Positions 44,909 through 54,707 of a stretch of DNA of 64,000 bases are shown here, in pieces. Every line of letters starts with the position of its first letter. Position 1 is the stretch's first letter. The position numbers and the translations under genes were made by a program. The notes beneath the pieces were generated by a model. It had not been told where the DNA came from and did not search any database. It saw only the letters and a list, made by a program, of their open reading frames with translations. The DNA lies in NCBI GenBank assembly GCA_030426685.1, contig JAUHYC010000007.1:19221-83220 (forward strand). Direction: 5' to 3'. Origin of the DNA: Alphaproteobacteria bacterium. Lineage in GTDB: Bacteria; Pseudomonadota; Alphaproteobacteria; Rhodobacterales; Rhodobacteraceae.

Positions 44909-46201
44909 ATGGTCGACATCGCGACGCGGGTCTACAATCATAAATGGAAGATCGACCCAATTGTGCGGTCATTGATCGACACAGATTTCTACAAACTTCT
45001 GATGTGTCAGTCAGTGTTTCGGAATAAGCCCCAAACCGACGTGGTGTTTTCGCTGATCAACCGGTCGAATCACGTACCCCTGGCGCAATTGATCGACGAG
45101 GGCGAGTTGCGCGAGCAGTTGGATCACATCCGGTCGTTAAGCCTGAGCCGCGGCGAAAGCACCTGGCTGCGGGGGAATACATTCTACGGTAAGCGCCAGA
45201 TGTTCCGCCCCGATTTCATGGAGTGGTTCGAGAACCTGCGCCTGCCCCCCTATCATCTGGAGCGCAAGGGCGACCAGTACGAGCTGACTTTTGAGGGCAA
45301 GTGGCATGAGGTTATGTTGTGGGAGATTCCGGCGCTGGCGGTGCTGATGGAGCTTCGCTCGCGTGCGGTCCTGAATAGCATGCGCCGGTTCGAGCTTCAG
45401 GTGCTCTATGCCCGCGCGATGACGCGGGTTTGGGAAAAGATCGACCAGCTGCGCGGCATTGACGGGTTGGGCATCGCGGATTTCGGCACGCGGCGGCGAC
45501 ATTCCTTCCTGTGGCAGGACTGGTGTGTGCAGGCGATGATCGAAGGGCTGGGCCCGGCCTTCACCGGGACTTCAAATTGCCTGATAGCGATGCGACGCGA
45601 GGTTGAGGCCATTGGCACCAACGCGCATGAACTGCCGATGGTCTATTCCGCTCTGGCTGAAACTGACGAGGCGCTGGCGCAGGCCCCCTATGACGTCCTC
45701 AGCGACTGGCACGAGGAGCATGACGGCAATCTGCGTATCATCCTGCCCGACACCTATGGGACAAAAGGGTTTCTCGACAATGCGCCAGACTGGCTGGCGG
45801 GTTGGACAGGCATTCGGGTCGACAGCGGCGACCCCGCCGCCGGGGCCGAGATTGCTATCAACTGGTGGAAATCGCGCGGCGAAGACCCGATGAAGAAACG
45901 TGTCATTTTCTCGGATGGGCTGGATGTGGACAAAATCCGCGAGTTACACGCACAGTTTGCAAATCGCACCAATGTATCCTTTGGTTGGGGCACGCTGCTG
46001 ACCAATGATTTCCGCGGGTTGGTCCCCGATGACGCGCTGGCACCGTTCTCGCTGGTGTGCAAAGCGGTCTCTGCCAATGGGCGGCCTACGGTGAAACTGT
46101 CGGACAACCCGGAGAAGGCGATGGGCCCGCCGGATCAGATCGAGCGTTACAAGCGCGTGTTCGGTGTCGGCGCACAGGAGGCGATCGAAGTGATCGTCTA
46201 G
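44909..46201 (+). CDS. pncB: nicotinate phosphoribosyltransferase
   Basis: SLIDTDFYKLLM, DFGTRRR, GTNAHE, LPDTYGT, DSGDP, KLSDNPEK. Confidence 0.96.
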   Translation: MVDIATRVYNHKWKIDPIVRSLIDTDFYKLLMCQSVFRNKPQTDVVFSLINRSNHVPLAQLIDEGELREQLDHIRSLSLSRGESTWLRGNTFYGKRQMFRPDFMEWFENLRLPPYHLERKGDQYELTFEGKWHEVMLWEIPALAVLMELRSRAVLNSMRRFELQVLYARAMTRVWEKIDQLRGIDGLGIADFGTRRRHSFLWQDWCVQAMIEGLGPAFTGTSNCLIAMRREVEAIGTNAHELPMVYSALAETDEALAQAPYDVLSDWHEEHDGNLRIILPDTYGTKGFLDNAPDWLAGWTGIRVDSGDPAAGAEIAINWWKSRGEDPMKKRVIFSDGLDVDKIRELHAQFANRTNVSFGWGTLLTNDFRGLVPDDALAPFSLVCKAVSANGRPTVKLSDNPEKAMGPPDQIERYKRVFGVGAQEAIEVIV

Positions 46202-47649
46202 CCGTGATAGGCGGCGACCGTTTTCAACTGTGAAAAGCCATAGAGCGCTTCGAACCCTTTCTCGCGGCCGTGGCCGGATTTCCCGACGCCGCCAAACGGC
46301 AGCTCAACCCCACCGCCAGCACCATAATTGTTGATAAACACCTGACCCGAACGCAACCCCTTTGCCAACCGCATCTGCCGCGCGCCATCGCGCGACCAGA
46401 CGCTGGCGACCAGACCGTAATCGGTGCTGTTGGCCATGATTAGAGCCTGTTTTTCAGTCTCAAACGGAATCAGGACCTGGACCGGGCCAAAAATCTCGTC
46501 GCGCGCCAGAGCGTGATCCGGGGGCACGTCTGCGAACAATGTGGGTTGCACATAGGCCCCGCCATCGGGCGCGCCTTCGACGATCTTGCCTTGGGCGGCG
46601 ATGGTCAAATCAGCACCCTGCGTAAGAAACCCGCTGACGATCTGCTTTTGCCGGTTCGATATCAGGGGGCCAACGCGCAGGTCCTGCATCGCAGGGCCAA
46701 CACTGAGTTGCTCATACGCCTCAGCCATTCGGGATTTGACCTGATCGTATACGCCGCGCTGCACCAGAATCCGGGAAGAGGCGGAACAGGTCTGCCCCGC
46801 ATTTTGAATGCCAGCGTTGACCAGAAACGGCAGCGCCGCGTCCAGATCGGCATCATCAAAGACCAATTGCGGGGATTTGCCGCCCAGTTCCAGCGTCACC
46901 GGCACCACATTCCGCCCTGCCGCCTGCTGCACCAGCGCCCCTGTGGCGACTGAACCGGTGAACGAGATATGGTTGACCCCCGGATGCCCGGACAGGGTCG
47001 CACCCGCCTCGGCCCCGAGGCCAGGCACAACGTTCAGCGCCCCGTCTGGCAGGCCGGCCTCAACCGCGAGATGGGCAAAGGCCAGTGCGGTCAGGCACGC
47101 CTCTTCCGCCGGTTTCAGCACGCAGGCATTGCCCATCGCCAACGCCGCGCCGACCGAGCGTCCGATGATCTGCATCGGATAGTTCCACGGCACGATATGA
47201 CCGGTCACCCCATGCGGTTCGCGCAGCGTATAGACCGTATAGCCGTCGAGATAGGGAATGGTTTCGCCCATCACCTTATCCGCCGCACCTCCGTAGAATT
47301 CGCAATACCGCGCCAGCGCCACCGCATCTGCCCGCGCCTGGGTCAGAGGCTTGCCCACATCTGTCGCTTCAAGCGCGGCCAAGTCGTCGACATGCTCCAG
47401 CACCAGTTGCCCCAGACGGGTCAGGATGCGGCCCCGCTCCAGCGCGGTCATTCGACCCCAATCTCCGTTCAAAGCCGTTTGCGCAGCAGCAACCGCCGCA
47501 TCGATATCCGGTTCAGCGCCACGCGCGATGCGGCAGATTTCGCCACCGTCCGACGGGTTGATCAGGGGCAGGGTTTCGCCCGTGCATGCAGGCACCCACT
47601 TCCCCCCAATCAGGCACTGGGTCGGGTCAAACCATGGCTGTTGGGACAT
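46198..47649 (-). CDS. aldehyde dehydrogenase
   Basis: IVPWNYP, FTGSVATG, LELGGKSP, GQTCSA, EIFGPV. Confidence 0.94.
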   Translation of the reverse strand: MSQQPWFDPTQCLIGGKWVPACTGETLPLINPSDGGEICRIARGAEPDIDAAVAAAQTALNGDWGRMTALERGRILTRLGQLVLEHVDDLAALEATDVGKPLTQARADAVALARYCEFYGGAADKVMGETIPYLDGYTVYTLREPHGVTGHIVPWNYPMQIIGRSVGAALAMGNACVLKPAEEACLTALAFAHLAVEAGLPDGALNVVPGLGAEAGATLSGHPGVNHISFTGSVATGALVQQAAGRNVVPVTLELGGKSPQLVFDDADLDAALPFLVNAGIQNAGQTCSASSRILVQRGVYDQVKSRMAEAYEQLSVGPAMQDLRVGPLISNRQKQIVSGFLTQGADLTIAAQGKIVEGAPDGGAYVQPTLFADVPPDHALARDEIFGPVQVLIPFETEKQALIMANSTDYGLVASVWSRDGARQMRLAKGLRSGQVFINNYGAGGGVELPFGGVGKSGHGREKGFEALYGFSQLKTVAAYHG

Positions 47650-47683
47650 ATTCGGTCTCCGTATAGGCTCTAACAAAGGTCAA

Positions 47684-49282
47684 TTACGCGGCGCCCTGCC
47701 CGATTTCAGGTAATTGGGGCGCTGCGGCAATCAAGGATTGAGTGTAGCGATGCTGCGGGTCCGAAAACACCTGCTCGGTTTCACCCTGCTCAACGATCCG
47801 ACCGGACTGCATGACCAGCACACGGTCGGTGATGGTGCGGACAACGCTCAGATCGTGGCTGATGAACAGATAGGTCAGGTCATAAGTGGCGCACAGGTCA
47901 ACCAACAGATCGAGAATCTGCGCCCGGACCGAAACATCGAGGGCGGAGACCGCTTCGTCAAACAGGATCAGCTGAGGCCGAATGATCAAGGCGCGGGCGA
48001 TGGCAATCCGCTGCCGTTGCCCGCCCGAAAACTCGTGAATGTATTTGTTTGAATCATCCGGGCTGAGGCCAACCGCCGTCAGCATCTCGGCGATGCGGTC
48101 CTGCCGTTCTGTCCCGGTGGGTGGGCGTTCCAGCAGGTGAAACGGTTCGGTGACAAGGCGCGCAACCCGGTGGCGGGGATTGAAGCTGCCATAGGGGTCC
48201 TGAAACACCACCTGCATCTTGCGACGAACCGCGAGGTTTGGCCGGTGCCCTGTGAAAACCGGTTGTCCATCCAGACGAATCTCACCGGACTGTACCTCTT
48301 CCAACCCCAGAATTGCCCGCGTTAGAGTCGATTTTCCACAACCAGACTCGCCCACCAACCCCAGTCGCTCACCCTTGTTGAGGGTAAAGCTGACCCCATC
48401 CACCGCGCGGTGATGGCGTTGTGGACCCAACAGACCCGTGCGGGGCAGACGATAGTCGCGGACCACCTGCGCGACCTGCAGCAACGGGCGCGGCTCAACT
48501 GTATCGGGCAGAATGACCTGATGACCCGAGGCTTCGAACAACATGCGGGTATAAGGGTGCCGCATGTGGCGCAGCAGATGTTGGGTCGCACCGCTTTCGA
48601 CCACTTCACCGTGGCGCATGACGGTGATCCGGTCGGCCATATCTGCCACCACCGCCAGATCATGGGTAATTATCAACAGCCCCATACCATATTCGCTGAC
48701 CAGCCCCTTGAGCAGATCGAGGATTTGCGCCTGCGTCGTCACGTCCAAAGCGGTCGTCGGTTCGTCCGCGATCAGCAGCTTGGGGCGCAGCGCGATGGCC
48801 ATGGCGATGACCACACGCTGGCGCTGGCCGCCCGACAGTTCATGCGGATAGCGCGACAGCGGGAAACGATCAGGCGGCAGGCCGACACGAGTCAGCACTT
48901 CCTCGGCGCGGGTGCGCGCTTGGGCTGGCGGCATGGCCTTGTGGATCAGGATCGTTTCCATCACCTGATCCCCGATAGTCTTGACCGGGTTCAGCGCGGT
49001 CATCGGCTCCTGAAACACCATGCCGATCGAGGCACCGCGCAGGGCGCACATTTCGGCCTCGGGGCGGTTTAAAACATCGACATCGTGCAACCGGATCGCA
49101 CCGCTGGCCTCAGCCCCGTTTGGCAGCAATTGCATCACGGCCAGCGCTGTCATTGACTTGCCCGAGCCGCTTTCGCCGGTCACCGCCACGATCTGACCGG
49201 GGGCGATGGACAGGTCGACCTGTTTCAGGATCGGCACCCCATGAATTGACAGGGACAGGTTTTTGATCTGCAGCAAACTCAT
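47684..49282 (-). CDS. peptide/nickel ABC transporter, fused double ATPase
   Basis: Two Walker A (GESGSGKS, GESGCGKS); LSGGQRQR and FSGGQRQR. Confidence 0.95.
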   Translation of the reverse strand: MSLLQIKNLSLSIHGVPILKQVDLSIAPGQIVAVTGESGSGKSMTALAVMQLLPNGAEASGAIRLHDVDVLNRPEAEMCALRGASIGMVFQEPMTALNPVKTIGDQVMETILIHKAMPPAQARTRAEEVLTRVGLPPDRFPLSRYPHELSGGQRQRVVIAMAIALRPKLLIADEPTTALDVTTQAQILDLLKGLVSEYGMGLLIITHDLAVVADMADRITVMRHGEVVESGATQHLLRHMRHPYTRMLFEASGHQVILPDTVEPRPLLQVAQVVRDYRLPRTGLLGPQRHHRAVDGVSFTLNKGERLGLVGESGCGKSTLTRAILGLEEVQSGEIRLDGQPVFTGHRPNLAVRRKMQVVFQDPYGSFNPRHRVARLVTEPFHLLERPPTGTERQDRIAEMLTAVGLSPDDSNKYIHEFSGGQRQRIAIARALIIRPQLILFDEAVSALDVSVRAQILDLLVDLCATYDLTYLFISHDLSVVRTITDRVLVMQSGRIVEQGETEQVFSDPQHRYTQSLIAAAPQLPEIGQGAA

Positions 49283-50094
49283 GTCCGCGCCACCCGGATA
49301 CGGGGATCGAGCCAGTCGCGCAACCCATCACCCAGAAGGTTCAGACCCAGCACCGTAACGATGATGGCAAGACCCGGAATCAGAGCCAAATGCGGGGCAA
49401 AGCTGACCATCGTTTGCGCATCTGCCAACATCCGGCCCCAACTGGGCGTTGGCGGCTGCGCACCCAATCCCACATAGGACAACCCGGCCTCGGCAAGGAT
49501 GCCCAAGCTGAACTGGATGGTCCCCTGGACGATCAGAAGGTTGGCAACGTTGGGCAGGATATGTTCGGTTGAAATCCGTGCTGCACCCTTGCCTGAAACG
49601 CGGGCGGCGAGGATGAACTCTCGCTCCCAAAGCGAGAGAGCGGCACCGCGGGTGATGCGGGCGAAGACGGGGATGTTGAAGATGCCGATGGCGATGATGG
49701 CGTTGATGGCTCCGGCCCCGAACACGGCGGTGATCAGGATGGCGATGACCAGCGAGGGGAAGGCAAAAACCAGATCATTGCCGCGCATGATCACTTCATC
49801 CCACCACGATCCCTTGCGGGCTGCTGCCGTCAGGCCGAGGGGCACGCCAAAGCCCACGCCGATACCCACCGCCACCAGTGCCACCGCGATTGAGGTGCGC
49901 GCGCCCACCATGATCATTGAAAACATATCGCGCCCGAAATGATCTGTGCCAAACCAGTGCTGCGCGTTCGGGGGCCGCAGTTTGTCGGGTATGTTCAGCG
50001 CGGCATAATCATAAGGCGTCCAAACAAACGAGAGCAGGGCCGCCAGAAGGACCAGCGATGACAGAAATGTACCAAGGATTAGGTTGCGGCTCAT
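49279..50094 (-). CDS. ABC permease (DppC-like)
   Basis: HWFGTDHFGRD, EFILAARVSG, HILPN, PSWGRML. Confidence 0.93.
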   Translation of the reverse strand: MSRNLILGTFLSSLVLLAALLSFVWTPYDYAALNIPDKLRPPNAQHWFGTDHFGRDMFSMIMVGARTSIAVALVAVGIGVGFGVPLGLTAAARKGSWWDEVIMRGNDLVFAFPSLVIAILITAVFGAGAINAIIAIGIFNIPVFARITRGAALSLWEREFILAARVSGKGAARISTEHILPNVANLLIVQGTIQFSLGILAEAGLSYVGLGAQPPTPSWGRMLADAQTMVSFAPHLALIPGLAIIVTVLGLNLLGDGLRDWLDPRIRVART

Positions 50095-51038
50095 GTTCTG
50101 CTCCTCAACCGGGGATCGACGGCGGCATAGGCCAGATCGACCAGAAAGTTGACGGTGATCACGGCGAAGACAAGCAGCATGACCACCGATTCCACAACAA
50201 TCAGATCGCGGGCCGAGATCGCCTGAAACACCAGCCGCCCCAGTCCGGGCAGGTAAAACACCTGTTCGATGATGATCGACCCGGCCAGCAGGAAGGAAAA
50301 TTGCAGCCCGATGATCGTCAGCACCGGGATCAGCGCATTGCGCACACCGTGGCGCCACAAGGCTTGTCGTCGGCTGAGGCCTTTGGCGCGGGCGGTGCGC
50401 ATGAAATCCTCACCCAGAATGTCCAGCAGTGATGAACGCATGACGCGCGCCAGAATGGCCGCCTGTGGCAGGGCCAGTGCAATGGCGGGCAGAGTCAGCG
50501 AATGCAGGCCGGTCCACAGGCCATTTTCCCAACCTGCAAATCCACCGGCATTGAACCAGCGCAGGTTGATGGCAAAGATCAGCACTAGCATCATCGCAAA
50601 CCAGAAGTTCGGCACCGCGATGCCCAGTTGCGTGGCGCCCATTACCGTCAGGTCTCCGGGTTTGCCCCGACGTGCAGCGGCGTAGATCCCGGAGGGAAAG
50701 GCAATCAGGGTGGACAAGGTCAGCGCAAACAGCGCCAGCGGTAACGACACCCACAACCGATCCGCGATCATTTGCGAAACCGGGGTGCGGTAGGTGTAGG
50801 AGGTGCCGAAATCCCCGGTCAGCATTCCGCCGACCCAATTGAAATACCGCTGCACCCTGGACACATCCAACCCAAGCTCGGCCCGCAGCGCCGCCAGCGT
50901 GTCAGGTTGTGCGTTCACGCCCAGCATGAACGAGGCTGGATCACCCGGCACGACCTCGATAACCGCGAATATGACGACCGAGGCGACCGCGAGGCTGATG
51001 ATCAGTGAGAGCAGGCGTTTGAGCGTATAACGAAGCAT
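50091..51038 (-). CDS. ABC permease (DppB-like)
   Basis: VVPGDPA, GDFGTSY, EDFMRTARAKGL, IEQVFYLPGLG. Confidence 0.93.
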   Translation of the reverse strand: MLRYTLKRLLSLIISLAVASVVIFAVIEVVPGDPASFMLGVNAQPDTLAALRAELGLDVSRVQRYFNWVGGMLTGDFGTSYTYRTPVSQMIADRLWVSLPLALFALTLSTLIAFPSGIYAAARRGKPGDLTVMGATQLGIAVPNFWFAMMLVLIFAINLRWFNAGGFAGWENGLWTGLHSLTLPAIALALPQAAILARVMRSSLLDILGEDFMRTARAKGLSRRQALWRHGVRNALIPVLTIIGLQFSFLLAGSIIIEQVFYLPGLGRLVFQAISARDLIVVESVVMLLVFAVITVNFLVDLAYAAVDPRLRSRT

Positions 51039-51078
51039 TGGAGCCACGTTAGGGTCACAACCGGATTGGGTCCAGCAC

Positions 51079-52149
51079 CTAAGGCACCAGCAGGTAGGCA
51101 AACATCGCGTAGCCAACAATTGCCGCATAGCCCAGCGGATAGATCCACTTGATCGCGTAATTATCCAGCTTTCTGGCCGCCTCTTCCCGACCCGCAACTT
51201 TCAACCGGCGCAGGGCGACGTTAAACACGATCAGCGCACCGGTCATCAGGAACATGCATTGCAGAATGAAATCCAGAAAGGTCAGATATCCCAGCTTGGG
51301 CAGATCCTCCGAAATCGCCCAGTTGAACGCCACAAAGACCAGCAGGTTCGCCCCCGCGATTTCGATCCGTTTGCGATATTCGTCGAGGAAGAACAGCGCC
51401 CAGCCAACCGTGATCAGCACCAGCATCGGGAGAAACACGCGGATGGTGTAATAGGTCAGGTGCCGCTTGCCTTCGAAAATCAGCGCCACCTGATCGCTGT
51501 CCCGGCCCGACAATCCGGTGACTTTGGAAACCTCAAGCCGGTCATTGCCCAGAATCCACTCCTCCTCACCCAGCAAATTGCCGAGGCCCGAAAACTCATC
51601 CAGCGGGTAATAGGACACGTATTCAGACGGAAAGATCGAGACGACGTCGAAATGGAACTCCTGCGTGTCGAACGGGTATTTTCGGAAGTTGAAATGCGGC
51701 GCCTGAAGGGTCAGCGATGATTTCTCGACATAGACAACTCGCCCGTCATAGCGCAGAGAGGCCGCAGATTCGTGTATCCATTTGTTGGATTGCTGGTTGT
51801 GTATGACAAAGGCCGGCAGAACCGCACCGATCTGCGCGGCATGGTCCGCCAGCGTTGGCGGGTTGAATACCCGAATGTCCCGGCCCGCAACGTCACGGTC
51901 GAAGGCCAGCGCGGGATCGATCCATTCGACCCGCAGAACCACAACCGCACCGTAGTTTTCGGCCTTTTGGTCGACACCTGTGATCTGGTCGATCTTGATT
52001 CCGACCCCAACCTCCAGCGGGTTCTCAGGTGTTCCGGCCAGGGCGTCAAGACGACCACCCAATGCATTCTGCGCCGCAGCTTTTCCAACCGGAGCGGTGG
52101 TCAGGAAAACGGTCAAAGCAAAAAGGCAAACGATACGGAAAAATGTCAT
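51079..52149 (-). CDS. prokaryotic pentameric ligand-gated ion channel (ELIC/GLIC-like)
   Basis: Signal peptide; beta-sandwich start VGVGIKIDQITGVD; Pro-loop FRKYPFDTQ; four C-terminal TM helices; LPKLGYLT M2-M3 loop. Confidence 0.85.
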   Translation of the reverse strand: MTFFRIVCLFALTVFLTTAPVGKAAAQNALGGRLDALAGTPENPLEVGVGIKIDQITGVDQKAENYGAVVVLRVEWIDPALAFDRDVAGRDIRVFNPPTLADHAAQIGAVLPAFVIHNQQSNKWIHESAASLRYDGRVVYVEKSSLTLQAPHFNFRKYPFDTQEFHFDVVSIFPSEYVSYYPLDEFSGLGNLLGEEEWILGNDRLEVSKVTGLSGRDSDQVALIFEGKRHLTYYTIRVFLPMLVLITVGWALFFLDEYRKRIEIAGANLLVFVAFNWAISEDLPKLGYLTFLDFILQCMFLMTGALIVFNVALRRLKVAGREEAARKLDNYAIKWIYPLGYAAIVGYAMFAYLLVP

Positions 52150-52178
52150 CACGGCGTCTACTCGGAAACGGCAATATT

Positions 52179-52203
52179 CCGGGGCCGCAGAATCAGGCCC
52201 CGG
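52179..52203 (-). other. intercistronic stem-loop after the SBP gene
   Basis: CCGGGGCC-N9-GGCCCCGG with no U-tract; probable mRNA stabiliser. Confidence 0.5.
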
Positions 52204-52210
52204 GCTTGCT

Positions 52211-53698
52211 TCACTCGGACCAGCTGATCGCAGTCAGATCGATGGCAGCAGTGGGGGCGTTTTCCCACAGCCCCTGCACGCCCGCTTTGGCCACGCCGAG
52301 TTTGGCCAGCTGGAACAGGTATCCATTGACATAATCGTTCGAGATCAGGCGCTGCGCCTCACCCAACAACCGGGTCCGTTCCCCCGGGTCGGTGGTGGCG
52401 TTCAGAGTGCCCATCAGCGCCTGAAAGTCGGTGCTGTCATATTGGAAATAATATTCGGGCCGCGCATAGATGCCGATATCCATCGGCTCGGTATGGCTGA
52501 CGATGGTCAGGCCGAACTCCTTGCCCTTGAACACCGATTCCAGCCATTGCGCCCATTCCACATTGATGATCTCGGCAGTGATGCCGACATCGGCCAGCTG
52601 GGCCGCGATGATCTCACCACCGCGCCGCGCGTAGGAGGGAGGCGGCAGGTGCAGGGTGGTCTCGAACCCGTCGGCAAACCCGGCCTCGGCCAGCAGTGCC
52701 CTGGCCTTTTCGGGGTCATGAGCCGAGTTGCCGGTCAAATCGACATAGGCCGGATGATGCGGCGCGAAATGCGTGCCGATGGGCGTGCCGTAGCCAAACA
52801 TCGCCCCATCGACAATGGCCTGCCTGTCGATGGCATGGGCCAGTGCCTGCCGCACGCGGATATCATCAAAAGGGGGCTGCTTGTTGTTGGTGGACAGAAT
52901 CGTTTCGCCTTCGGTCGAGCCCACCAACACCTGAAACCTCGGGTCGGCTTCGAACTGAGGCAGGTTCTCCGGTGCGGGGAAGTTGTCGAACACATCGATA
53001 TCCTCGGCCATCATGGCGGCAAAGGCGGCGGTGGGGTCCGAGATGAACTTGAACGTTGCAGTCTCTAATGCGGGCTGATCGCCCCAGTAGTCGGGGTTTC
53101 GGTTCAGCGTGATGCTGTCGCCCTGCACCCAGTTGCCAAAGGTGAAGGCACCGGTTCCGACGGGGTTGGTCTTGATGTTTTCTATGCTTTCAGGCGCGAC
53201 GATCACCGCATCGCCCCAGGCCAGGTTAAACAGGAAATTGCCGTTGGGTTCGGACAGAGTCACTTTGACGGTCAGAGGATCGACGACCTCAACGCTCTCG
53301 ATTCCGGCAAACAGCGCCTTCTGCGCGTTGGCGCTGTCTTCGGCGGTGGCACGATCGAGGCTGAATTTGACATCCTCGGCATCCATGGTGCTGCCATCGT
53401 GGAAGGTCACACCGTCGCGCAGCTTGAAAGTGTATTCGGTGCCGTCATCCGAGATCTCCCAGCTTTCAGCCAGGCCCGGCACCACCGATCCGTCGCCCAT
53501 GAACCGGGTCAGCCCCTCGAAGATATTGGTATAGACCACCGAATCAATCGCCTGCGCCGCGGCGCTGGTCGGGTCCAGATGCGGCGGTTCAAGCTGCATC
53601 GCGATGGTGATATCCGATTTCGCCAACGCCTGCGACGCCAACAATGACGCGCCCAGCGCAAGGGCCGAGGCTAAAGACCGAACCGATTGCATTCCCAT
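52211..53698 (-). CDS. ABC substrate-binding protein (family 5, peptide/nickel)
   Basis: LDPT, IFEGL, PGLAESW, GVTFHDG, PVGTGAF, VRQALAHAIDR. Confidence 0.94.
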   Translation of the reverse strand: MGMQSVRSLASALALGASLLASQALAKSDITIAMQLEPPHLDPTSAAAQAIDSVVYTNIFEGLTRFMGDGSVVPGLAESWEISDDGTEYTFKLRDGVTFHDGSTMDAEDVKFSLDRATAEDSANAQKALFAGIESVEVVDPLTVKVTLSEPNGNFLFNLAWGDAVIVAPESIENIKTNPVGTGAFTFGNWVQGDSITLNRNPDYWGDQPALETATFKFISDPTAAFAAMMAEDIDVFDNFPAPENLPQFEADPRFQVLVGSTEGETILSTNNKQPPFDDIRVRQALAHAIDRQAIVDGAMFGYGTPIGTHFAPHHPAYVDLTGNSAHDPEKARALLAEAGFADGFETTLHLPPPSYARRGGEIIAAQLADVGITAEIINVEWAQWLESVFKGKEFGLTIVSHTEPMDIGIYARPEYYFQYDSTDFQALMGTLNATTDPGERTRLLGEAQRLISNDYVNGYLFQLAKLGVAKAGVQGLWENAPTAAIDLTAISWSE

Positions 53699-53867
53699 GA
53701 CATTCACTCCCCACTGAAGAAGGCTCGTCCGCTGTTTGCGGATCGTTCTGAGACCAATCTCCCTTTAAAATTTGGGTCAATCAAGGATTTGTTCGCGCAA
53801 CCGGGGTTTCTTAGCCACTGCCCGATCTGCTATGCCGCACCGCAACATGAACCCGCGAGGAGCGAGC

Positions 53868-54707
53868 ATGAGCGCCACCGCCCGTAAGACAGCCCCGAAT
53901 GCCGAGGATATTCGCACCCGCAAGGCCGGCGAACCGCTGGTCAGCCTGACAGCGTATACAACGCCAATGGCGCGGCTGATGGATGCCCATTGTGACTTTG
54001 TTCTGGTCGGCGACAGCGTCGGCATGGTTCTGCACGGCCTGACGTCGACCCTTGGGGTGACGATGGAGATGATGATTATGCACGGCCAGGCTGTCGCGCG
54101 CGGGCTTGAGCAGGCCATGATGGTCATCGACATGCCCTTTGCCAGTTACGAACATGACCCGGCGCAGGCCTTTCGCAACGCCGCACGGCTGATGGCCGAG
54201 ACCGGTGCGGGCGCGGTGAAGCTCGAAGGCGGGGTTGAAATGGCCGACACCATCCGCTTTCTGGTCAAGCGTGGCATTCCGGTGATGGCGCATATCGGGC
54301 TGACGCCGCAATCGATCAACACCCTTGGTGGCTATAAGGTGCAGGGCCGTGATGACCAGGCGCAGGCGGTGCTGGCCGATGCCCGCGCCGTGGCCGAGGC
54401 AGGCGCGTTTTCCGTCGTGTTAGAGAAGGTTCCGCAAAGTCTGGCGGATCGGATCACCCGGGACGTCGCGATCCCGACCATAGGCATCGGTGCCTCGGCC
54501 GGGTGCGACGGGCAGATTTTGGTGGTGGACGACATGCTTGGTTTTTTCACCGCTTTCAAACCAAAATTCGTCAAGCGCTATGCCGATCTGGGACCACAGG
54601 CCGAAGCCGCAATCGCGGAATATGCCGCCGATGTCCGCGCGCGCAATTTCCCCGCGGACGAACATGTCTTTTCCGACAAGGCCCCTGTCAAAGGGGGGAA
54701 ATCATGA
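53868..54707 (+). CDS. panB: 3-methyl-2-oxobutanoate hydroxymethyltransferase
   Basis: [38 protein letters not shown]. Confidence 0.97.

Follow-up and report, generated by a model that had tools for sequence, protein, structure and literature searches.

Why does a gene for an ion channel of the pentameric ligand-gated kind (pLGIC) lie among the genes of a peptide-type ABC importer, and does its place there say what the channel is for? The question is raised by a locus at positions 46198-53698 of a 64,000-nucleotide (nt) stretch of a Rhodobacteraceae contig (JAUHYC010000007.1; hereafter the window, to which all coordinates refer unless a locus is named). All six genes of the locus are on the minus strand and are read in the order solute-binding protein (SBP), pLGIC, first permease (PermB), second permease (PermC), fused double ATPase and aldehyde dehydrogenase (ALDH). 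The initial annotation took this position to suggest that the channel senses the transported solute, or the liganded SBP, and couples uptake and aldehyde catabolism to ion flux. Our results show that the channel is genuine and the arrangement recurrent, and that the place between the SBP and the permeases is a variable slot; because this slot accepts unrelated genes, some of them on the opposite strand, or nothing at all, position alone cannot carry the sensing inference. We favor, at about an even chance, the reading that the channel is an optional co-expressed accessory with sTeLIC-like gating that stands outside the transport machinery.

The region 51079-52149 encodes an intact pLGIC of 356 amino acids (aa). 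Its extracellular part scored 41.2 bits against the Pfam family PF02931 (Neur_chan_LBD), for which the gathering score is 26. Among solved channels, the protein matched sTeLIC over its full length (6fl9; E 9e-77, 44% identity over 298 aa), DeCLIC in its channel core (E 2e-69; 36-37% identical according to Foldseek) and, much more weakly, GLIC (E ~1e-19). Residues 41-230 align with the extracellular domain (ECD) of sTeLIC, and the transmembrane domain (TMD) aligns with its M1-M4, including the M2 sequence NLLxFxAFN. The AlphaFold (AF2) model, with a mean pLDDT of 74.5, consists of an N-terminal signal helix, a ten-strand sandwich (residues 45-229) and four C-terminal helices, which form the transmembrane helices 231-254, 256-281, 286-318 and 322-354; the top Foldseek matches of this model were sTeLIC and DeCLIC chains. 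The Pro-loop, YPFDTQ, occupies residues 158-163, and P159, F160 and D161 are invariant in 18 diverse members of the clade formed by the channel and its close relatives. It has no flanking cysteines, as is usual among prokaryotic pLGICs. Within the clade there is no variation in the YPFD of the Pro-loop, the GEEEW of loop F, the RH before M1 or the M2 motif, and the loop C, TGLSG, is kept across it. Pfam, the sTeLIC/DeCLIC matches and the fold model agree in bearing out the identity that the initial annotation had assigned. On sequence grounds, the protein joins the sTeLIC/DeCLIC branch as a new member and is predicted to be a homopentameric cation channel.

We surveyed one genome per GTDB species with a query made from an alignment of homologues, obtaining 247 relatives of which the best 80 were examined. 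Among these 80, a total of 67 loci in 66 genomes carry SBP-pLGIC-PermB-PermC-ATPase-ALDH on one strand, and all loci with at least 57% identity show this order, except for one contig from a metagenome-assembled genome (MAG). The genomes belong to Ruegeria and about ten allied genera (Leisingera, Primorskyibacter, Tropicibacter, Falsiruegeria, Cribrihabitans, Seohaeicola, Lutimaribacter, Shimia, represented by S. biformata, and Jhaorihella, plus MAGs). In all 66 both genes are read from one strand, and the pLGIC gene directly follows that of the SBP at a distance of 55-160 bp. The initial annotation had asked whether pLGICs recur in this operon or whether the channel is a one-strain insertion; its recurrence in 66 species-level genomes from some ten genera settles this in favor of recurrence.

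The same survey bears on the idea that the gene is a decaying or non-functional remnant, or even a mis-called open reading frame (ORF). The pLGIC is the fastest-evolving gene of the string, with a mean p-distance of 0.29 compared to 0.15 for the SBP, that is, about twice as fast, and 0.09 for PermB; moreover, it is frameshifted in one species. Against a remnant, the ORF is full length in ~65 genomes, its dN/dS is 0.165 over 58 loci (0.06-0.11 for the other genes of the string), its gating motifs do not vary and solved channels align with it from end to end. Since the gene is under purifying selection it is not a relic, and the selection analysis effectively refutes this explanation, to which we attach hardly any probability.

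Two individual loci deserve mention. In Jhaorihella thermophila DSM 23413 (L144:9608-10602) tblastn recovered the pLGIC as two segments that overlap and are in different frames; it is either a probable pseudogene with a frameshift or a sequencing error. The only clade-type pLGIC outside the ABC locus (58% identity) was found in the MAG Rhodobacteraceae UBA10424 (L066:2057-3112), where it is followed by NYN, ispH, GST and LysE genes; this placement could be due to relocation or mis-assembly.

The content of the position occupied by the channel was studied by means of a contig scan anchored on the SBP, which yielded more than 563 relatives. The best 80 were kept, and 68 of their loci contain both the SBP and PermB. 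A syntenic core was kept throughout the SBP-anchored loci, with glpK-panC-panB diverging from SBP-[slot]-PermB-PermC-ATPase-(ALDH), and pncB converging on the latter. The slot itself is highly variable. It holds a pLGIC in 25 of the 68 loci, an HDAC-family (HDAC-like) amidohydrolase encoded on the opposite strand in 20, a cupin in some 14, an MBL-fold gene with an HxlR regulator in three or four, an unknown secreted 338-aa protein in three, an SH3_3 gene on the opposite strand in another three, and a tannase, a Zn-ADH and a PhoX in one locus each; in six loci it is empty, with only 51-171 bp between SBP and PermB. These counts add up to more than 68 because several loci hold more than one gene. 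Variation is found even among close relatives: Ruegeria HKCCA6707, whose SBP is 93% identical to that of the window, has an empty 59-bp junction, R. halocynthiae DSM 27839 carries the unknown secreted protein, and R. profundi S382 and R. meonggei carry SH3_3 genes. Shimia biformata has a pLGIC followed by a cupin, and in Leisingera the SBP-pLGIC pair is followed by an opposite-strand HDAC gene that parts it from the permeases.

We considered that a divergent channel might be hidden in the ~1.08-kb gaps of three pLGIC-less loci (L083, L090 and L109). This was ruled out, as the gaps encode the unrelated secreted 338-aa protein, which has no Pfam or NCBIfam match. Regarding the other occupants, the slot cupin passes the NCBIfam equivalog cut-off for (R)-mandelonitrile lyase, and Ruegeria sp. 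HKCCSA071 (L030:11289-17504) has, inserted between pLGIC and PermB, a complete soxBDAG operon for a heterotetrameric sarcosine-oxidase-like enzyme (beta, delta, alpha and gamma subunits), together with a regulator of the AraC/DJ-1 type on the opposite strand.

In a neighbor-joining tree built from SBP, PermB and PermC, the pLGIC-bearing loci are paraphyletic. Loci that lack the channel are nested within Ruegeria, within Leisingera and within the Sedimentitalea group, and no locus of the Phaeobacter/Sulfitobacter/Tateyamaria clade contains it. The distances between channels track those between transporters (Spearman 0.71). The simplest history is one acquisition followed by vertical inheritance and repeated loss or replacement. 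The SBP-permease junction is, then, a gene-exchange hot spot in Roseobacter-group genomes; our guess is that homologous recombination between the highly conserved flanks swaps the cargo, perhaps with the help of gene transfer agents. The importer can apparently do without the channel, and the pN/pS of the SBP is alike with or without it (0.108, 0.106 and 0.093).

Both borders of the slot are marked by conserved non-coding elements. On the SBP side, the 61-bp spacer between the SBP stop and the pLGIC ATG holds a stem-loop (52179-52203, minus strand; extended stem 52171-52209) of eight G+C pairs, closed by a loop of 9 nt and not followed by a T-run, which confirms the hairpin without a U-tract reported by the initial annotation. 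Its folding energy is -24.3 kcal/mol, and the terminator search did not pick it up as intrinsic. Of 121 non-redundant orthologous loci, 92% have a comparable hairpin after the SBP stop (median -22.9 kcal/mol within 55 nt, z -2.8); a T-run comes after it in only 7 of the 121, and it is kept whatever cargo lies downstream. The element is a probable 3' stabilizer or partial attenuator of the SBP transcript; by analogy with the intercistronic hairpins of malE-malF and of Rhodobacter puf, it would stabilize or partly terminate the SBP message.

On the permease side, the 40-bp spacer between the pLGIC stop and the PermB ATG contains a putative promoter-like element (51045-51075, minus strand), made of CTGGACC (51075-51069), a spacer and CCTAACGTG (51053-51045). 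These are the two most conserved non-coding blocks in 108 unique PermB upstream regions, 66 of them from pLGIC-bearing and 42 from pLGIC-less loci. The element reads TGGACC-N17-TAACGT and ends 7 nt before the window PermB ATG (7-9 nt across L001-L158). Its form suggests a sigma-70-like promoter, from which the PermB mRNA would start with no leader or hardly any, and the presence of opposite-strand genes directly upstream of it in many loci is consistent with a promoter. Readings of the motif as a sigma-54 or an ECF/EcfG promoter were discarded by eye, since neither the spacing nor the second block agrees with them. A search for consensus sigma-70 promoters and intrinsic terminators in 46000-54000 gave no more hits than expected from shuffled sequences, and none in the 61-bp or the 40-bp spacer.

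These borders are relevant to the possibility that the channel is a pure positional hitch-hiker, with its own regulation and an unrelated function (e.g., pH or cation homeostasis), lodged in a permissive, recombination-prone site between transcription units. Such a site is what the heterogeneous content of the slot, opposite-strand genes included, and its delimitation by the hairpin and the promoter-like motif would lead one to expect, and the repeated loss of the channel and the housekeeping contexts of outgroup channels, such as that downstream of typA in Shimia, point the same way. Nevertheless, the hairpin and the start of the pLGIC gene are only ~25-35 nt apart, which leaves little room for an independent promoter, and no sigma-70-like site was detected between them. 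Also against a hitch-hiker are the place of the channel, which is always first after the SBP gene, and an SBP-pLGIC evolutionary correlation that is unusually high. We therefore consider a mere hitch-hiker doubtful.

If the channel is instead an accessory of the cells that express the importer, its relatives offer a clue as to what might open it. In a 2026 preprint, alkaline gating of sTeLIC is ascribed mainly to E160 in loop F, with contributions from E159, E28, the vestibular E106, H81 and Y104 (bioRxiv 10.64898/2026.01.07.698087). In an ungapped alignment, E160/E159/E28/E106/Y104/H81 of sTeLIC correspond to E196/E195/E64/E142/Y140/H117 of the window channel. All of them are conserved, and the aligned sensor residues are invariant or nearly so across the members of the clade and of the outgroup family. 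Judging from these residues, the window channel plausibly keeps the same gating hardware as sTeLIC. In the vestibular modulator pocket, mapped by hand, Y104 is kept (Y140) and W75 is changed to L111.

Our preferred reading, the optional accessory, can be set out as follows. The channel gene would have entered the slot in an ancestor of Ruegeria and its allied genera, and would since have been inherited mostly vertically and lost or replaced several times. The SBP gene ends in the U-less stem-loop, and the permease-ATPase-ALDH genes begin with a promoter-like element of their own and a start that lacks a Shine-Dalgarno sequence. The channel would be transcribed by read-through past the SBP hairpin, so that a small amount of it would be made whenever the SBP is induced. 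The conserved residues suggest that it would be gated like sTeLIC, by periplasmic alkalinity sensed by way of the vestibular Glu and the acidic cluster of loop F/beta1-beta2, and that it may be subject to block by divalent cations and possibly to modulation by small molecules. The accessory would thus add a conditional cation conductance to cells expressing the uptake system. As to the benefit, we can only speculate that it might help to cope with alkalinization or ion shifts during the catabolism of a nitrogen-rich substrate.

Several points weigh against this reading. What we say of read-through, of the promoter-like motif and of sTeLIC-like gating is inferred, and conserved sensor residues are no proof of the same stimulus; furthermore, W75, Y80 and R92, which belong to the vestibular network of sTeLIC, are L111, I116 and S128 in the window channel. 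The pLGIC is first after the SBP even where other cargo, be it a cupin, an HDAC-like gene or the sox operon, shares the slot, and members of the clade are almost never found elsewhere, the MAG locus L066 being the sole exception. The partial distance-matrix correlation between SBP and pLGIC, with the other four genes controlled, was 0.76, near that of PermB-PermC (0.79); all the remaining gene pairs reached at most 0.43, and the adjacent pLGIC-PermB pair only 0.21. Within 37 core Ruegeria loci the non-synonymous correlation of SBP and pLGIC was 0.87, the highest of any pair, with an unremarkable synonymous correlation of 0.82. First position, near-exclusive location and correlated divergence all fit a dedicated SBP-channel module.

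Such a module is the core of the sensing alternative. Here the solute being transported would gate the channel or modulate it, or the SBP would do so when it docks, with its ligand bound, on the channel's periplasmic domain; the channel would convert the presence of the solute into ion flux. The output would be a signal in the form of membrane potential or cations, which might serve motility or metabolic priming, for instance, and would run in parallel to uptake. Besides the correlations above, of which the distance-matrix one is comparable to that of the two permeases, this alternative is supported by the constant adjacency and common orientation of the two genes, by the integrity of the pair when an opposite-strand gene parts it from the permeases, as in Leisingera, and by the long retention of the channel in one position under purifying selection. 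There is also a precedent. In 2004, Tasneem, Iyer, Jakobsson and Aravind described predicted operons that pair pLGIC genes with stand-alone genes of PBP-II proteins, and suggested that both cooperate in chemosensing of small solutes (PMC549065). The cooperation of a binding protein and a pLGIC put forward by the initial annotation had therefore already been published. In the literature that we searched we found no experimental test of the 2004 proposal and no paper on pLGICs in Roseobacter ABC operons.

Other results speak against sensing. The SBP-pLGIC correlation is not specific to the periplasmic domain, as it was nearly equal for the ECD (0.85) and the TMD (0.84), and a relaxation of the SBP after channel loss was rejected, its pN/pS being unchanged. 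We looked in the channel for a clade-specific patch at the orthosteric or loop-C site and found none; the clade-specific positions, 11 in number, are scattered, with the majority in the TMD and the beta5-beta6 region. At this locus, conservation of position is a weak argument because glpK, panCB and pncB are equally syntenic though unrelated, and the slot takes clearly unrelated genes. Relatives of the channel, moreover, function without an SBP. Neither the 13 alphaproteobacterial outgroup channel loci nor 52 loci of the sTeLIC/DeCLIC type, from tubeworm symbionts, Chloroflexota, cyanobacteria, Desulfobulbales and Chromatiales, have ABC or SBP neighbors. A sister group of pLGICs (46-51% identity), from Shimia spp. 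and Thiosulfatihalobacter (L069, L071, L072, L075-L080), has a conserved setting of another kind, icd - yitT-like - SMR - typA/bipA - pLGIC, without a binding protein.

Taken together, the claim that position implies sensing stands only in part. The pLGIC is real, recurrent, under purifying selection, always placed after the SBP and correlated with it in divergence; on the other hand, the slot is interchangeable and the constraint on the SBP is the same when the channel is absent. The argument is further weakened by the conserved promoter-like element of the permeases' own, by the conservation of the pH-sensor residues of sTeLIC in the window channel, and by the fact that sTeLIC and DeCLIC are gated by pH or Ca2+ without an SBP and have homologs without ABC neighbors. 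Accordingly, we rank the optional accessory first, the module gated by the SBP or the solute second, as a possible but tentative explanation, and the positional hitch-hiker third. A more specific form of the module, in which SBP and channel make up a two-protein receptor where the liganded SBP or the solute gates an sTeLIC-type channel, giving a fast ionic read-out of the imported nutrient, seems to us unlikely.

Regarding the remaining genes of the locus, Pfam families were found for all six, and the gene order of the initial annotation was confirmed. The SBP belongs to family 5 (52211-53698; 495 aa from the ATG at 53698; PF00496, SBP_bac_5, E 9e-98). PermB (50091-51038, 315 aa) is of the DppB/GsiC/NikB type with PF00528 (BPD_transp_1) and PF19300, and PermC (49279-50094, 271 aa) is of the DppC/GsiD/NikC type with PF00528. 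The fused double ATPase (47684-49282, 532 aa) contains two ABC_tran domains and an oligo_HPY domain and is GsiA/YejF-like. The last gene encodes an NAD(P)-dependent ALDH (46198-47649; 483 aa from the ATG at 47649; PF00171, Aldedh, E 8e-151). Reading of the sequence also verified the annotated gaps of 61 and 40 bp on either side of the pLGIC and of 34 bp between the ATPase stop and the ALDH ATG, and showed 4-bp ATGA overlaps at the PermB/PermC and PermC/ATPase junctions. Shine-Dalgarno sequences precede SBP (GGGGAG, 8 nt upstream), PermC (GAGGAG) and ALDH (GGAG), and none was seen before PermB. Independent NCBI gene calls of a relative with a 94% identical channel gave the same six gene lengths.

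Upstream of the SBP lies a divergent control region (53699-53867) shared with panB, whose ATG is at 53868 on the plus strand. It contains the block CCTTGATTGAC (53786-53776, minus-strand reading), located ~80 nt before the SBP start, which is the only strongly conserved stretch in an alignment of 119 non-redundant SBP upstream regions and is a candidate -35 element or operator of the SBP promoter. At the other end of the locus, the stops of ALDH and of the convergent nicotinate phosphoribosyltransferase gene pncB (plus strand) overlap by 4 bp (46198-46201), so there is no room for terminators between them.

The set of importer proteins is complete: an SBP_bac_5 protein, a pair of BPD_transp_1 permeases and a double ATPase that carries an oligo_HPY tail. 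No NCBIfam equivalog cut-off was reached by the SBP or by either permease; the top matches of the SBP were GsiB, NikA and DppA, all far under their cut-offs (216 bits vs. 594 for GsiB). The double ATPase passed the NikD, NikE, CntD and CntF cut-offs only because the scores of its two ABC domains sum, and was under the equivalogs for fused ATPases (GsiA, 512 bits vs. 1077; YejF, 538 vs. 834). The closest solved structures to the SBP were those of AgaA (agropinic acid) and YliB/GsiB (glutathione), at ~176 bits and ~30% identity. For the ALDH, the closest solved relative was 4ywe, an uncharacterized ALDH from Burkholderia (657 bits), and the scores were below the NCBIfam model cut-offs for BADH and aminobutyraldehyde-DH. 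The attempt to name the substrate through homologs of the SBP and the ALDH failed, as AgaA and GsiB are only ~30% identical and the Burkholderia ALDH is uncharacterized. Nor did a search of 50900-54000 match any Rfam family, so no riboswitch names the substrate. Speculatively, the ALDH together with the occupants of the slot (HDAC-like amidohydrolase, sarcosine oxidase and cupin) might hint at the catabolism of N-substituted amino compounds.

Prokaryotic pLGICs are major structural models for neurotransmitter receptors, and to our knowledge the physiological roles of GLIC, ELIC, sTeLIC and DeCLIC are still unknown. The locus described here is a tractable natural test bed, as it offers a close relative of sTeLIC in culturable marine Ruegeria, probably co-expressed with a defined binding protein, together with sister strains in which the slot is empty or holds another gene and which amount to isogenic-like slot variants. 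With the SBP co-located and such variants at hand, the cellular role of the channel and its cross-talk with the binding protein become directly testable. If the two-protein receptor were true, it would be a split bacterial counterpart of channels gated by a binding-protein domain, and prokaryotic pLGICs would have their first physiological ligand pathway. The existence of a hot spot for gene exchange within a conserved ABC operon advises caution in inferring function from operon position alone. No new mechanism is shown by this work; what is new is a well-populated variant of the PBP-pLGIC neighborhood, with a family-5 SBP from a complete importer.

Lastly, the locus can be compared with known systems. 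GLIC, which is proton-activated, and ELIC, which is amine-activated, have the fold and topology of the window channel but only ~20% identity to it, and we know of no description of either within an ABC operon. DeCLIC (Desulfofustis; 6V4A, 7Q3G) belongs to the same branch as the window channel and has in common with it the acidic cluster of loop F and the domain interface, which is a Ca2+ site in DeCLIC, but it bears an additional N-terminal domain of ~300 residues that the window channel lacks. Similar long forms, ~640-650 aa in length and likewise with an added N-terminal domain, are present in Xenococcus (cyanobacteria), in Chloroflexia MAGs and also in Desulfofustis (L179:5005-6930, L172:5023-6966 and L195:5005-6942). 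sTeLIC, from the endosymbiont of Tevnia jerichonana (6FL9, 9EX6, 9EWL), has a minimal architecture in common with the window channel, neither of them having an extra N-terminal domain, and both contain DQITxVDQKxEN, NQQ, QAPxFxFxxxPFD, GEEEW, RHL and NLLxFxAFN. They differ in loop C, which is TGLSG in the window, and in context, since orthologs of sTeLIC lie between an OMP beta-barrel gene and asmA/yhdP without SBP or ABC genes nearby, unlike the window channel.

The importer has the same set of components as those of the Dpp/Opp/Gsi/Nik type, for example E. coli GsiABCD, and its fused double ATPase with an oligo_HPY tail is like that of GsiA/YejF. It differs from them in the order SBP-[slot]-permeases-ATPase-ALDH and in having no equivalog-level NCBIfam match to a system of known substrate. 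As in the operons of Tasneem et al. (2004), the pLGIC gene of the window lies beside a co-oriented gene of the PBP-II superfamily in a conserved neighborhood, here found in 66 genomes. However, the PBP-II proteins of those operons stand alone, whereas the window SBP is a family-5 protein that forms part of a complete importer with permeases, double ATPase and ALDH, and the arrangement, traced through all of these genomes, occupies a slot that in other lineages is filled by unrelated genes.

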